Positions 8,484 to 17,398 of a DNA stretch of 64,000 bases are shown piece by piece. Positions within the stretch are counted from its first letter, which is position 1. Every line of letters starts with the position of its first letter. A program made the translations under genes and the position numbers. The stretch is from positions 434,001 through 498,000 of the forward strand of contig NW_026250430.1 of the NCBI RefSeq assembly GCF_024521635.1. The letters run 5' to 3'. The notes under the pieces were generated by a model. It made no database searches. It saw nothing but the letters and a program-made list of their open reading frames with translations, and was not told the origin of the DNA. This stretch comes from Tricharina praecox (lineage: Eukaryota).

Positions 8484-8660
8484 ATGCTATTCCACGCGGG
8501 AACCCACACCACAGTCATCGCCATCCTCCTCGTCATCACCGCCGCGTTCGCCGCACCGCTGTCTCGTCCTCGTCCCGCCCCGCTGTCGGAGGCGACGGCA
8601 GAACACGATTGGAATAGGGCGGCGGATTCTGGCCGGGGCGGGGTTGACGCGGGGGGTTGA
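8484..8660 (+). CDS. Small secreted peptide precursor, family A, 58 aa
   Basis: TATAAG at 8400; MLFHAGTHTTVIAILLVITAAFA|APLSRPRPAPLSEATAEHDWNRAADSGRGGVDAGG. Confidence 0.75.
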   Translation: MLFHAGTHTTVIAILLVITAAFAAPLSRPRPAPLSEATAEHDWNRAADSGRGGVDAGG

Positions 8661-8758
8661 GAACGGCGGGCGAGGGGGGTGGCGGCTATGTACTTCTCTA
8701 TGGCGCGGTTGGGCTAGGGTCTGATATCAGATATCACTCGAACGGAATGTCACAGTGT

Positions 8759-8912
8759 TGTTGTAATATCTGTCTAGATTAGTCATGGTAAAAGGCACGG
8801 GCCTTTACCCCTATTCCATATATCTTCTGTTCTCACGAGGCTATAGCCTTACACTTCAATACTACACTGTTCACCACCATATCTTACCATATCTTACTCT
8901 ATATTTCCCACA
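8759..8912 (+). mobile_element. Solo LTR (154 bp), copy 1
   Basis: TGTTG...CA termini, flanks AGTGT/AGTGC (5-bp TSD with 1 mismatch); closely matches the reverse complement of 33980-34134. Strand is arbitrary. Confidence 0.75.
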
Positions 8913-9428
8913 AGTGCGATCAGTCTGTCTGCCGGTCGGTCGGTGCATTACATAATCGTCCATTGCGGTCGAGCAGGTGAACGAGGAATAGTTATGGGTT
9001 ATCTGCGCCGCCCTCGTACGGTATATGGTTCAAAACTCAAACGAGTATATTTATTGGTGATGTTTCACCGTGCAGTGGGCAAGTCCATCAAATCAGCGTT
9101 GTTCGCGTAGATGTAACTCAGTGTTCTTCATTAGAAGAGCTCTAAACCGCGCCCTTGCCGTTGCCGTTGCTAGGAAAATCGAGCCGGATACGAGGCTTTG
9201 CACTGCTATCTATATCATAACCATTTACGGTCGAGAACTTAGAACGGTACTATGAGCGTCGCCGCCCTCGTATTGTTTTCGCATGGTGATTGGCGCGGGC
9301 TCTGAGCTCCGTTTGTCGGTGCCGAGTTCCAACTGCTACCTGCCAACGAACGCCGAGCGGAATACGAGCTCGAGTATTACTCCCCATCCACGCATCTCCC
9401 TTCAACCCTCCCAACAACGCCAAGTCGA

Positions 9429-9605
9429 ATGCGATTCAACTGCGGAACCGGCTTGGGGTTCGTCTACGTCCACACGGCAAATGCCGCTCCGATAGTCGAC
9501 TTGGGCCCACTAGCTTTTGACGACGTACAGTGGGGCACCGCGAGTTGGCGGTGGTGGTGGTGTCGGGGCCTGGTGCGTGGTAGGTATTGCAGAGGGAGGT
9601 GCTAG
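9429..9605 (+). CDS. Family A paralogue with shortened signal peptide and Trp/Arg/Cys-rich tail, 58 aa (possibly a pseudogene)
   Basis: MRFNCGTGLGFVYVHTANA|APIVDLGPLAFDDVQWGTASWRWWWCRGLVRGRYCRGRC; N-terminus matches 10076 (MKFNCGT) but lacks most of the hydrophobic core; GAATACGAG at 9360. Confidence 0.45.
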   Translation: MRFNCGTGLGFVYVHTANAAPIVDLGPLAFDDVQWGTASWRWWWCRGLVRGRYCRGRC

Positions 9606-10075
9606 GTACCGTGCCGGAACGGAAATATAATCTGGATGAAATTCTATTTGGGGATCGGAGGAGATATCCGGCGGAGCGAAATGCATAGCCGAGAATGTAA
9701 ACACGGTACTAAACATAGACGACAGCTCTGTCCGACGTCCGGGAATCACGAGCAGCTGTTGGGCGAGTACCCTATGGTACGGTATGATGTGCACGGTAAG
9801 CACGACCCTCACTGCCATCACCGGCACGCTCGTATACGGATCAACCGTGATCATTGGCGCCGGGGGCGAACCCAGCAAAGTTCCGTCGCCTTCAGTAACC
9901 ACAAAGCCGGAGCGGAATACAGTACGAGGTCGAGCACTGGGTATAAAAACCTCTCCTCTCCTCTCCGAGTAGCCTATCCACCAACCTCAAACCTCTTAGT
10001 CCTTCCCCACGCAACTCCCTCGGAACCGAACAACCCTCGGCCTCGCACCACCTCAAAAGCAAAATCAAACCCGAA

Positions 10076-10228
10076 ATGAAATTCAACTGCGGAACTGTCC
10101 TCGCGGCCGCCGCCCTCCTGCTCGTCTATGTTAACGCGGCAACCGCCGCGCCGACTCCGGTGGCGGCTCCGGCGGCGGAGCCTGGCGAGACGGAGGTGGT
10201 GGGGACGATGGGGAGCGGTGTGTGTTAG
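10076..10228 (+). CDS. Small secreted peptide precursor, family A, 50 aa
   Basis: TATAAAA at 9942; MKFNCGTVLAAAALLLVYVNAATA|APTPVAAPAAEP|GETEVVGTMGSGVC; below the ORF-track length cut-off. Confidence 0.8.
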   Translation: MKFNCGTVLAAAALLLVYVNAATAAPTPVAAPAAEPGETEVVGTMGSGVC

Positions 10229-10673
10229 TAAGGCGCGGGATGGTGGGATGGTGGGATGGTGGGATGGGGAGCCGGACAGCCGGCAGGATCGGGATGGGTT
10301 GATGTTGTGGGGGCGGGGCGATACGGAAGATACAATACGCGCTCGGCCGGCTGTTTAGATGTTTGTTTGTGCTGTCCAGATATTCTAGCCTCGTGCATAT
10401 GTAGCTATGACGGGTCCGAGTTACCTTTCATCCTCACCTGAGCCATCCCGAGTGACATGATTGTGTATGTATGGCTACGTGCGTGCGTTCGAAGCGCCGT
10501 TCACCAATGCCAATGCCAGTGAAACTCGGGGTGAATACGCGCTCGTAGGCTATACTAAACCACACCATACGGCGTACACACCAGCTTTCTGTCTATATTA
10601 ACCCGCCGTGCAAACCTCTCACCCCTCCGCTCCCTCCATCCCTCCATCCCTCCATCCCCCCACCCGAATCGAA

Positions 10674-14940: not shown

Positions 14941-15498
14941 TGGCCCTGTGCGGAGTGTGAATGTGTGACGCCCGTCGGTTTGTGATGAGTGTTTTGGAGG
15001 GCGGGGGGGAGGGAAGGCAGGTGAGGCGGGACGGACGGACGGAGCTGCAGTAGGGGCGGATGTGTTTCAATATTCAGTTGGCTATTCACGCTCGTATTGT
15101 ACGTTCGATTTAAGCAACTGGTTTATTGTACCTATTCAAAGAGGAACACTTGGAGAAGTCAGTGGCAATTCCAGATCTCTTGTTCATGTGATATCACTCC
15201 AGATCGGCGAAATCTGAATACGAGGTGTAGCGATGTTTTCGTGTAACTCGGTAGACGTCCCCGGCCGAAAGAGAGGTCGCTACACCTGCGCCCACTACGT
15301 TAGGTCAACAGCAGGACCAGAGCGTGCGCACATTGCCACAGGTCCAAAGGAATCGACAGGCTGCTGGCTGCATCCGGTTCGTGAATCGTCACCGTCAATA
15401 TCCGAATACGGGGTCTATAAACACCATCTTTCCCCGTCTCCCCACTCTTCATCGAACCTTATCACCTTCACCACGAAAACACAACTCAACACAGCAAA

Positions 15499-15633
15499 AT
15501 GCAATTCCCGTACCAATCCATCCTCGCCTTGACCCTTCTGTTCGCTATCGCAGCCGCGGTTACGGCACCAGTTCCCGGGTCCGTTGAAGACGCCGAAGCC
15601 GAGTTTGGCAACGAATGGGGGAGGAGGGCGTAG
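15499..15633 (+). CDS. Small secreted peptide precursor, family A, 44 aa
   Basis: TCCGAATACGGGGTCTATAAA at 15401; MQFPYQSILALTLLFAIAAAVT|APVPGSVEDAEAEFGNEWGRRA. Confidence 0.8.
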   Translation: MQFPYQSILALTLLFAIAAAVTAPVPGSVEDAEAEFGNEWGRRA

Positions 15634-15697
15634 CTGTTGTGCAGAGGGTCGAACGTGTCCGGTTGTCTCGGTTGGGTGGGTGGGAGGGTGGGAGGGG

Positions 15698-15766
15698 AAG
15701 TGGGAGGTAGAAGTGGGAGGTAGAAGTGGGAGGTAGAAGTGGGAGGTAGAAGTGGGAGGTAGAAGT
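15698..15766. repeat. 13-bp minisatellite (AAGTGGGAGGTAG)x5
   Basis: Five perfect units plus a partial unit, 3' of the 15499 gene. Confidence 0.95.
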
Positions 15767-16593
15767 TGAAGGCGCGAACAGTGGGAGTGGGTGTGGATTT
15801 TCGAGTAGATTTTCGAGTGGATATTCAAGTGGCTATTCACGTTTGTATCAATTCATGGGGTGTTTGAGTGCAGTGTCTGTTCTCATTTCTGTTGGTTCAC
15901 AGTGAATGGGCTTTCAAGTGGCTATTCGCGTTGGTTCTGTGCGTGAGGGGGTGTAGTCTGCTTTAACTTTTCAAAGTGGGAGGACCATTCGGTCTGTCGC
16001 ATGTGGTGTGGCCGTACTACCAGCCTACCTCACGAGTCATCACTCAGAATCAATGATAGTGGCACCGCATGGTATTGGCGAAATCCAAATACGAGGTAGA
16101 CTACTCTAGTTATCGATGGCACCGATGGCACCGATTGGCTGAGAGCCCGAAGTCCCGTCACCCGTGCAGAATATTCAACGTGTCGAGGTGTCGTGAGAGC
16201 CCGAAACTGAAAGGAAGAGATCGGAGGATCTGGCCGATTGGCGAGCGAAGTGGGTGATGGGAGGTACCTAGCCTATGATGAGTGGATTCTAATAGTAGTC
16301 ATTCATGTTCGTATCATCTGTGGATGGATAAGGTTTGGTTTTTGTGTGATGGTGGGTGGAGTGGCAAGCCGGTAGGTAGGAAAGCTGGTCTGGCGGGTTG
16401 ATGCCAGCGGTAGAATGGGCGCTGTGAAGGGGGGGTGACCTCACGGGAAACACATAGAACCAAATAGCGGTAAAGCCGCTTGGTAGAAATGTCAAACGAG
16501 TCTGAATACGAGGTGCGGGGAGTTGTGTCGCCGCCTCAAGCCCTCCGCCCTCTTCGGTCTCCATCTTGCCTTACCTATCGTCTCGACAAAGCA

Positions 16594-16749
16594 ATGCGAT
16601 TTCTCTACCAAACGATCCTCGCAGTGAATCTTTTCTTCGCCATCACTGTTGCCGTCGCGGCACCGGCTCCGGCACTGGGTCCCGGCTCAGTTGATGACCC
16701 TGACGAAGGTAGTCAGTGGGGGAGAGCCTGGTTTCCTCAGAATTCGTAG
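16594..16749 (+). CDS. Small secreted peptide precursor, family A, 51 aa
   Basis: MRFLYQTILAVNLFFAITVAVA|APAPALGPGSVDDPDEGSQWGRAWFPQNS; shared element at 16501; no TATA seen. Confidence 0.75.
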   Translation: MRFLYQTILAVNLFFAITVAVAAPAPALGPGSVDDPDEGSQWGRAWFPQNS

Positions 16750-17242
16750 TGTAAAGCCCGTCGAGTTGTCACAAGCTCCTGGGAGGGATGGAGGGAGGAA
16801 GGAAGGGGTGGGGTGGGAGCATTGGCGGGGGAAGTGGGATGGAAGGAGCTATGGGATTGGATTTCAAGTGGATGTTGCGTTTGTATTCTTCTTGGAGGGA
16901 TGGATATGAATTCTGCCGTGAAGGTAGCGAGTGAATGAGTATCAGAGTATGTACCAAATCTCTATTCGCTGTGTATGGTTCCATGGTGTGGGATGACCTC
17001 GTGAGTGAGACATCACCGTGTCCAATAGCAGTACCGGTACAGTATTGCAGCGTGCTCGTAGCGAATCTGAATACGAACATGCCATGATCCAAATCCTGAA
17101 TGCACCACGATGCAACCGAAACGAATCTGAATCTGAATCTAAATACGAGGTCTATAAACAGCATCTGGCTTCCCATAAATACATACCCTTTCCCCTCTCT
17201 CTCCCGGCCTTCATCCCCACCTACCTCCACTTCGACCACGCA

Positions 17243-17398
17243 ATGCGATTCCAATACTTCCTTGAAACGACCTTCACCCTAGGCTTCCTCGTCGCCATAG
17301 CCATCGCGGTACCTGTTCCGACCTCCGATAGTGGGGTCGACGGTGGTAACGAGTTCCCAAGGATTTCGAGGCCCTGTGCCAATTGCTTAACGCGTTGA
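17243..17398 (+). CDS. Small secreted peptide precursor, family A, 51 aa
   Basis: TCTAAATACGAGGTCTATAAA at 17138; MRFQYFLETTFTLGFLVAIAIA|VPVPTSDSGVDGGNEFPRISRPCANCLTR. Confidence 0.8.
   Translation: MRFQYFLETTFTLGFLVAIAIAVPVPTSDSGVDGGNEFPRISRPCANCLTR

Follow-up and report, generated by a model that had tools for sequence, protein, structure and literature searches.

Runs of X-Ala and X-Pro dipeptides that follow the signal sequence of fungal secretory precursors serve as substrates for Ste13-type diaminopeptidases (PMC9252082); examples are the prepro regions of Yarrowia lipolytica Lip2 and XPR2 and the spacers of yeast alpha-factor. In Cryptococcus neoformans, as described in PMC7537855, the tiny Qsp1 product is exported as a pro-peptide, matured by the extracellular protease Pqp1 to a short peptide that serves as a quorum-sensing signal, and imported by Opt1. 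Multigene families in which a strongly conserved signal/pro cassette precedes a variable mature part have also been described (PMC4558851). Such families retain a cysteine framework and are often under positive selection. The present analysis concerns a tandem array of twelve short open reading frames (ORFs) near the start of a 64,000-nucleotide stretch from Tricharina praecox (RefSeq assembly GCF_024521635.1, contig NW_026250430.1, positions 434,001 to 498,000 of the forward strand; hereafter the window, with positions counted from its first letter). With a probability of about 0.65, the array is best read from its sequence as an orphan family of tandem mini-genes, each independent and all restricted to this lineage, that encode secreted prepropeptides; its closest analogies are of kind and not of descent.

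The array has in common with the Ste13-type prepro systems a signal-peptide-like N-terminus followed by one to six X-Pro/X-Ala dipeptides, but its cargo would be a peptide of 13–47 residues where that of Lip2 and XPR2 is an enzyme, and it contains neither the Lys-Arg site nor the repeated mature unit of alpha-factor. Stepwise-activated peptide precursors of insects and frogs are further examples of dipeptide trimming. Qsp1 offers what is probably the best functional analogy for the shortest product of the array, that of the ORF at 14818, and for peptides like it; the two are likened by description and share only an export signal and a short tail, Qsp1 being a single gene of a basidiomycete yeast whereas the array is a multigene locus with no linked protease or transporter in the window. 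Compared with the conserved-cassette families, the array has CxxC in four of twelve members, no common cysteine framework, and a ratio of nonsynonymous to synonymous substitution rates (dN/dS) below 1 in the tails of its closest trio. Fungal small secreted proteins and effector-gene clusters are, like the array, lineage-specific tandem duplicates with signal peptides and no Pfam domain, but the typical annotated protein of this kind is far larger than these precursors of 40–81 amino acids, and T. praecox is a saprotrophic post-fire soil cup fungus and no known pathogen. Precursors of the dikaritin/UstA and MSDIN types are likewise short and combine a conserved N-terminal region with a core that varies. 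Those of the UstA type start with a signal peptide; MSDIN precursors, to our knowledge, have none, and carry a conserved MSDIN-type leader from which the core is excised by a dedicated prolyl oligopeptidase.

The twelve ORFs, named here by the position of their ATG, lie at 1304, 8484, 9429, 10076, 10674, 12859, 13681, 14195, 14818, 15499, 16594 and 17243, all on the + strand; they are paralogs, real and transcribed. When the first 20 kb of the window were screened for ATG-initiated ORFs with a minimum length of 30 codons, the eleven ORFs of the array and the outlier 1304 all appeared at the positions given by an earlier reading of the letters without database searches (the sequence-only reading). 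From 8484 to 17243 the ATG-to-ATG distances are 945, 647, 598, 2185, 822, 514, 623, 681, 1095 and 649 bases, nine of the ten falling in the range of 0.5–1.1 kb expected from that reading; the 2185-base gap is occupied by a relic copy (12289–12462, +) that is absent from its list. A second proposed outlier near 5050 exists as an ORF of 59 amino acids at 5049–5228 (+) with an EW-x-K-P-R-like tail, but is a weak candidate, family-like only to the extent of 17 bits and an expectation value (E) of 1.7e-4 in the best left-out profile.

Kinship was assessed by leave-one-out profile tests against a background of 572 ATG ORFs of the window. The sequence-only reading had staked the family on mutual alignment of the ORFs, and this alignment is significant, the left-out member being found at E ≤0.0021 in 10 of 12 cases. 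The values run from 3.1e-12 for 14818 and 4.9e-12 for 15499, through 2.5e-11 for 16594, 1.8e-11 for 12859 and 3.7e-8 for 10076, to 2.7e-7 for 8484; a second group between 2.1e-5 and 0.0021 holds 17243 (2.1e-5), 14195 (8.6e-5), 10674 and 1304 (0.0021); and the exceptions are 9429 (0.026) and 13681, the most divergent member, at only 0.32, which is tied to the array by the DNA repeat families D5 and D8. Eight of the twelve left-out members score at or above the best non-member, which was the relic ORF at 12319 in ten runs and ORF 5049 in two. The alignment of the products starts at residue 1, with an invariant M1, and dissolves after the Pro behind the hydrophobic stretch; F3, an Ala towards the end of that stretch and the Pro directly after it each occur in 90% of members or more. 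At the DNA level, repeat families connect the copies at three points, namely the start region, the stretch that encodes Ala and Pro, and a G-rich stretch further downstream, and an nhmmer search of the 64 kb with a profile of the unit found no extra copy, its best additional match (E 1.3e-4) lying on the opposite strand of a member.

The relic at 12289 opens like a family member, with the same context around its ATG and with M-x-F, is interrupted by TAG at codon 5, and has an in-frame ATG at 12319; downstream of this come V-P-I-P-A-A-A-P, then C-A-G-stop, and finally a G-rich tract, and its DNA can be aligned with that of 12859 and 10076. ORF 12319 is thus, judged on these letters, a thirteenth, broken family copy. 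The relic and 9429 are probably dead, and several copies may be decaying.

Conservation between copies is concentrated in the coding start. Pairwise alignment scores were compared with shuffled controls over fixed segments of each unit, two upstream, one covering the cassette and four downstream. In the trio 14818, 16594 and 15499 the first 75 coding bases reach z 20.6 and the other six segments 0.8–4.7; over all 12 copies the same 75 bases give z 3.5 and the remaining segments at most 0.8, so that flanks and tails are near random between copies. Within the first 25 codons of the trio dN/dS is 0.17–0.19 at dS 0.64–1.23, and differences in the first 16 codons fall at codon positions 1, 2 and 3 in numbers of 10, 6 and 20. 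Third positions of the family ORFs contain A at 0.11 and C at 0.40 (over codons 1–25, 0.13 and 0.55), similar to the housekeeping exons of the window (0.08 and 0.43). The low dN/dS and the third-position bias together show that purifying selection acts on the cassette as on coding sequence, and the small-gene family with signal-peptide-like N-termini that had been proposed from the letters is accordingly one of real paralogy with coding-type constraint in its first 25 codons.

The tails evolve differently. Over 15–17 codons of the same trio dN/dS is 0.19–0.90; it is 1.19 for 14818 against 17243, and values for more distant pairs are noisy, at approximately 0.2–1.8. Tails are weakly constrained or unconstrained, a pattern that fits relaxed constraint. 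Where the sequence-only reading had called the family diversifying, in the sense of positive selection, the range within the trio gives no sign of it, and its interpretation as a whole is partly supported.

The N-termini resemble export signals. F stands at residue 3 in 11 of 12 members, in agreement with the M-x-F start noted earlier, and a junction of a small-x-small site, mostly A-x-A, with X-Pro behind it is present at residues 19–26 of every member. Ahead of the junction the best 9-residue hydropathy is 2.16–3.40, the exception being 9429 (9429–9605, +, 58 amino acids), where a short hydrophobic core without five of its residues gives 1.71 and a Cys occupies position -3. A crude combined rule (hydropathy ≥2.0 over nine residues plus small-x-small|X-P) is passed by 11 of the 12 members, 9429 failing. 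Among the window's 633 ATG frames with 40 codons or more, 26 pass; the 15 that are not members show no clustering and occur on either strand, and ORF 5049 fails. By this crude rule, then, signal peptides, whose absence the sequence-only reading had set against itself, are tentatively predicted for 11 of the 12. Behind the predicted cut, runs of X-Pro/X-Ala dipeptides number 6, 1, 1, 6, 6, 6, 1, 2, 3, 2, 2 and 2 for members 1304 through 17243, at least two in nine members and at least one in all twelve; the pattern is descriptive only, and the cut-site rule itself requires Pro at +2. Pfam assigns no family to the products of 10674 and 1304 or to that of the longer ORF starting at 16489.

After the predicted pro-segment, 13–47 residues remain, with a net charge that is negative in seven members, zero in one and positive in four. 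Because most tails are acidic or near-neutral, excepting 1304 and the possibly dead 9429, a classical cationic antimicrobial role is argued against. Outlying member 1304 (1304–1504, +, 66 amino acids) has a signal-like N-terminus followed by six dipeptides and a Pro/Lys-rich tail of net charge +7 with a terminal Trp; 10076 (10076–10228, +, 50 amino acids) likewise has six dipeptides. Both tail motifs described from the letters, [EDQ]W-x-[RK] and CxxC, are seen, except that the CAEC attributed to 14818 lies outside its ORF, after an in-frame TGA. The Trp motif is found in five of twelve members: 8484 (8484–8660, +, 58 amino acids; DWNR), 14195 (14195–14332, +, 45 amino acids; tail EWRKPRGDC), 14818 (14818–14940, +, 40 amino acids; ...DGSDWGKT), 15499 (15499–15633, +, 44 amino acids; ...GNEWGRRA) and 16594 (16594–16749, +, 51 amino acids from the family ATG; ...GSQWGRAWFPQNS), the last of which has an alternative upstream ATG at 16489 that would give 86 amino acids. 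At the corresponding position 17243 (17243–17398, +, 51 amino acids) reads E-F-P-R, an EF-x-R motif, and it ends with an intact PCANC. An in-frame CxxC near the end is found in 17243, 10674, 12859 (12859–13023, +, 54 amino acids; C-terminal PCAQCV) and 13681 (13681–13836, +, 51 amino acids; C-terminal PECPDCM), and three of these four tails carry Pro one or two residues ahead of it. That five tails carry, close to their end, one Trp followed by a basic residue suggests that they share a site for processing or recognition. The PCxxC ends could close into a small disulfide loop or serve to bind soft metals.

The fates of these tails can be followed when the five right-hand units are aligned as DNA and read with their three-frame translations. 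A homologous stretch, W-G-[KR]-x-x-P-C-x-x-C, is fully coding in 17243. In 14195 its PCxxC part is coding with the first Cys changed to Arg; in 14818 an in-frame TGA, aligned with TGG in 16594, precedes W-P-C-A-E-C; in 15499 the homologous stretch is frameshifted; and in 16594 it is overwritten and the ORF ends at TAG. Members 14818, 15499 and 16594 all keep G-x-[DEQ]-W-G-[KR] right before their differing stops. Elsewhere the 9429 ORF continues into its G-rich tract, acquiring a Trp/Arg/Cys-rich end, and 10674 (10674–11004, +) is spliced from two exons (10674–10837 and 10923–11004) into a product of 81 amino acids, its intron joining the CGDC-T that closes exon 1 to a second exon taken from the G-rich tract. 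The out-of-frame PCxxC stretches may represent decay, and tail remodelling in general would be either decay or the route by which new tails arise; pure decay is less likely for 14818, 15499 and 16594 because their cassettes are constrained. A further candidate, selenocysteine at the 14818 TGA (UxxC), was rejected, since Rfam at gathering scores gave 0 matches over the window, with no selenocysteine insertion sequence (SECIS), and ARAGORN found no tRNA there. We know of no selenocysteine machinery in Dikarya.

A TATA-like box, a feature noted in the sequence-only reading, is present at -56 to -99 in eight of twelve units, the leader is pyrimidine-rich (C+T 0.50–0.78), the 100-base leader is free of ATG in 11 of 12 units, and a purine occupies -3 in 11 of 12. 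Some units share an upstream element, GAATACGAGGT, with seven copies spanning 9360–17151, all on the + strand and starting at 9360, 14574, 15216, 15404, 16087, 16504 and 17141; at up to one mismatch these seven in the window compare with 0.75 expected, a number attained in 0 of 100 shuffles for the count of 7. Units 15499 and 17243 have the element immediately ahead of TATAAA, approximately 95 bases ahead of the ATG. A G-rich tract follows most units, such as that at 14990–15025 (+), and other G-quadruplex-like (G4-like) runs lie at 10237–10269, 10958–10985, 14333–14357, 15674–15704 and 17418–17442. In nine of twelve units G makes up at least 0.42 of the 150 bases after the stop (window mean 0.272), and 6 of the 12 + strand G4-like runs of the window are no more than 200 bases away from the stop codon of a family member. 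The tract behind 15499 also holds a tandem repeat of 13-base period at 15684–15785, with about seven GAAGTGGGAGGTA-like units.

Transcripts, the absence of which the sequence-only reading had named as fatal to it, are found. No run recorded as RNA holds the whole 9.3-kb stretch submitted to the run search, and two runs of unrecorded kind from different studies, X1 and X2, hold 63% and 38% of its words. Their contigs are probably RNA, a reading made because they carry GT..AG joints. Placement covered 8000–18000, with position 1304 outside. There the 17 listed X1/X2 pieces have 0 differences, apart from one piece with 1; 30 of 40 X1 records and 11 of 12 X2 records are at ≥99% identity; 28 of 30 bins are covered by X1 and 21 of 30 by X2; and contigs end in sequencing adapters at several places. 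Nothing from run X3 could be placed on this interval, and bins 16016–16349 and 17686–18000 are uncovered in every run. A third study contributes a recorded RNA library, the soil metatranscriptome X5, one contig of which is identical to the window over 14778–14977 with 0 differences; because this match is exact and includes the stop codon, the TGA of 14818 is independently confirmed.

Joints of the GT..AG type on the + strand occur at 9939>9999, 10837>10923, 14465>14514 (in both runs) and 15157>15231, and a fifth, 12645>12703, is CT..AC and marks a minus-strand intron. The joint 10837>10923, seen in X1, lies inside the 10674 ORF, and the spliced product is identical to a database protein, P0003. 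Among the members, 8484 is covered by an X1 contig at 8502–8991 and an X2 contig at 8454–8810 (0 differences), 9429 by an X1 contig at 9313–10414, 10076 by an X2 contig at 9756–10219 that includes the upstream intron, 12859 by contigs at 12217–13477 (X1) and 12527–13453 (X2), 13681 and 14195 together by contigs at 13692–14465 (X1) and 13669–14465 (X2; 0 differences in both), and 16594 by an X2 contig at 16537–16760. The X1 depth is 19442 in bin 14680–15013 (14818), 3966 in bin 15348–15681 (15499), 123–304 in bins 17018–17685 (17243) and 0–761 in other bins, figures that are given once per contig and serve as a hint only, unfit for ranking genes. Two other gene models were rejected: a set of alternative first exons that share constant exons downstream, which the five joints contradict in that each skips 48–85 bases and none is long-range, and a longer protein from ORF 9636–10079 joined to 10076 across the 9940–9998 intron, for which coordinate arithmetic shows mismatched frames. 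Beside 8484, a dispersed repeat of about 150 bases (8765–8914, with an inverted copy, 94% identical, at 33978–34127) is covered, in the copy next to the gene, by high-depth X1 contigs with about ten differences from the window, and other expressed copies of it probably exist in the genome. At 12884–12925, where 12859 encodes its signal, X1 and X2 each have a contig that matches these 42 bases only and diverges to the left and right of them; this may reflect another locus of the genome, either family-like or of low complexity.

As a family of secreted prepropeptides, each unit would comprise its own promoter (GAATACGAGGT in some, a TATA-like box in most), a pyrimidine-rich leader of 60–100 bases without upstream ATG, one short ORF and the G-rich tract behind it. 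The hydrophobic N-terminus would direct the product of 40–81 amino acids into the endoplasmic reticulum (ER), signal peptidase would cut behind the small-x-small site, and a Ste13-type dipeptidyl aminopeptidase would trim the exposed X-Pro/X-Ala dipeptides stepwise. The peptide of 13–47 residues so released would often be acidic, with Trp before a basic residue, a C-terminal PCxxC, or both. The family would have grown by tandem duplication, with selection holding the export/pro cassette. The tail would drift and be reshaped as nonsense shifts, frameshifts or new introns arise, or as the ORF reads on into the G-rich flank. Our guess for the role is that of extracellular peptides for self-signalling or for competition with other soil microbes. 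A more ambitious version of this proposal, which we consider unlikely, sees a peptide-signal or arsenal locus of a kind undescribed in filamentous ascomycetes, in which a dozen separately promoted micro-genes, co-regulated via GAATACGAGGT, use the fixed cassette to launch new tails of 13–47 residues, minted by stop relocation, frame shift or splicing into the G-rich 3' flank; the 14818 product, some 13–15 residues with a Trp, would then be an abundant signal or antagonist in the colonisation of burnt soil.

Several observations weigh against a family of secreted prepropeptides. Four of the twelve members (13681, 10674, 9429 and 1304) fall below the relic in the leave-one-out tests, the cleavage sites are rule-based, and the dipeptide pattern is purely descriptive. 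Tail dN/dS stays below 1 in the closest trio, with no signal of adaptive diversification, and the PCxxC DNA is conserved yet lies outside the ORF in 14818, 15499 and 16594 and is damaged in 14195. The RNA status of X1 and X2 is guessed, and their contigs give no strand, ends or levels. The minus-strand intron 12646–12702 points to an antisense or neighbouring transcript over the relic and 12859, which at 12217–13477 is without a Pfam-recognisable ORF. Three + strand introns (9940–9998, 14466–14513 and 15158–15230) lie between genes, one starting at the TATA-like box of 10076 and another ending in an GAATACGAGGT element, and contigs extend across neighbouring units, which suggests 5'-extended, read-through or non-coding transcripts along the array. 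No processing enzyme, receptor, protease, oxidase or oligopeptide transporter is linked to the array by Pfam in the 64-kb window, and no relative outside this genome was found among the predicted proteins or metagenome contigs searched.

The damage seen in individual copies can also be accommodated by a locus in which one or a few functional genes (e.g., 17243, 12859 or 13681) persist among decaying duplicates that are transcribed through kept promoters. The stop, frameshift and lost Cys that remove or spoil PCxxC in 14818 (TGA where 16594 has TGG), 15499, 16594 (TAG) and 14195 are what such a history would leave, as are the TAG at codon 5 of the relic, the 5-residue core gap and Cys at -3 of 9429, and tail dN/dS rising to 0.90 in the closest trio and to 1.19 between 14818 and 17243. 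The copies that would count as truncated, however, are 14818, 15499 and 16594, the very ones whose cassettes have been constrained since they split, and which keep the same Trp-containing motif before their differing stops; moreover, 14818 and 15499 lie in the deepest X1 bins, a hint only, and 14818 is the sole member in the soil metatranscriptome. We therefore regard a locus of mostly dying duplicates as improbable.

A conserved leader followed by a variable core also recalls precursors of ribosomally synthesised and post-translationally modified peptides (RiPPs), in which the leader would guide enzymes encoded elsewhere and the core would be excised, cyclised or cross-linked. Trp and Cys are common cross-linking residues, and Pro stands ahead of the variable stretch and of the CxxC in several tails, but no tailoring-enzyme family was detected by Pfam among the 149 window ORFs of at least 110 amino acids, the array ORFs contain neither repeated cores nor regular Lys-Arg sites, and the leader resembles an ordinary ER signal that fits processing in the secretory pathway, although one fungal RiPP class has a signal peptide too. 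RiPP precursors are on this balance quite improbable. The same ORF set, with no tailoring genes, led to rejection of a linked RiPP gene cluster and, with neither DUF3328/UstYa nor another tailoring family, of a dikaritin neighbourhood; a Kex2-processed repeat or dikaritin precursor was dismissed on the single tail per ORF, the lack of internal repeats and the lack of regular Lys-Arg; and membership in the MSDIN/cycloamanide class is contradicted by hydrophobic, signal-like N-termini and by the absence of a prolyl oligopeptidase from the window. The intergenic introns, the contigs spanning neighbouring units, the antisense spliced transcript over 12859, and the shared upstream motif and downstream G-rich tract would all be in place in a regulatory or non-coding transcript module of promoter, leader and short RNA whose small ORFs yield no functional translated product. 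Conservation nevertheless begins its peak at the ATG, the 100 upstream bases reaching z 3.0 as against 20.6 for the first 75 coding bases; cassette changes fall mainly at third codon positions; all 12 copies, whose DNA is otherwise near random, retain the start codon, F3, the hydrophobic core and the A-x-A|X-P junction; and Rfam returned 0 matches. A non-coding module is thus a very remote prospect.

Secreted prepropeptide genes of this size would easily escape annotation. Of ten peptides looked up, one has an NCBI accession, the 10674 product P0003 being an exact match to an NCBI/UniRef 'hypothetical protein' of T. praecox; P0001 (the 16489 ORF) and P0004 (identical to the 10076 ORF) are known from run assemblies only, and the remaining seven are absent from a collection of 15 billion proteins. 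Genes this small are routinely missed, and the public collection thus holds one NCBI model and two run-assembly ORFs for the family. The remark in the sequence-only reading that most of these genes had been missed by the ORF track is matched by the annotation, where no NCBI model was found for 11 of 12. A profile of all 12 members run against 1.84 billion representatives gave five matches at E ≤0.001, three of which are the array's own P0001, P0003 and P0004 and two of which are long proteins, P0002 and P0005, found in 30 and 14 stretches and left uninspected. A word-indexed search at E ≤10 returned only P0003 and P0004 among 7258 candidates, an alignment of the trio met 31 pattern matches and 0 confirmed ones among metagenome contigs, and the ESM Atlas had no usable match for the 12859 peptide. 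No description of the family was found in the open-access literature searched on the organism or on small secreted or conserved-signal fungal families. The absence of relatives holds for predicted proteomes and not for genomes, because such short, fast-changing ORFs are seldom called.

The family is new, in that its relatives escape detection and hardly any of it is annotated, but its general kind is known. If secreted as predicted, its products would be a fungal case of the design in which a fixed prepro cassette carries a free mature peptide, known from animal venoms and antimicrobial peptides, in a host whose microbial interactions are little known. The array would also be a clean case for the origin of new peptide tails from flanking non-coding DNA, and the tails, being short and synthesisable, are concrete candidates for signalling, antimicrobial and metal-binding assays.

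Pfam matches over the 149 stop-to-stop ORFs mentioned above are limited to CorA, MFS_1 (below cut-off), UDPGP, STI1/TPR and Oxysterol_BP. On the right flank an 888-codon open frame (20065–22731, -) is rich in Pro, Ala and Ser and without a Pfam match, and on the left flank lies a CorA-like fragment (7054–7596, +). Further left, the window contains a long poly-G tract of about 50 bases at 5379–5434 and a (GA)n microsatellite at 18–61.

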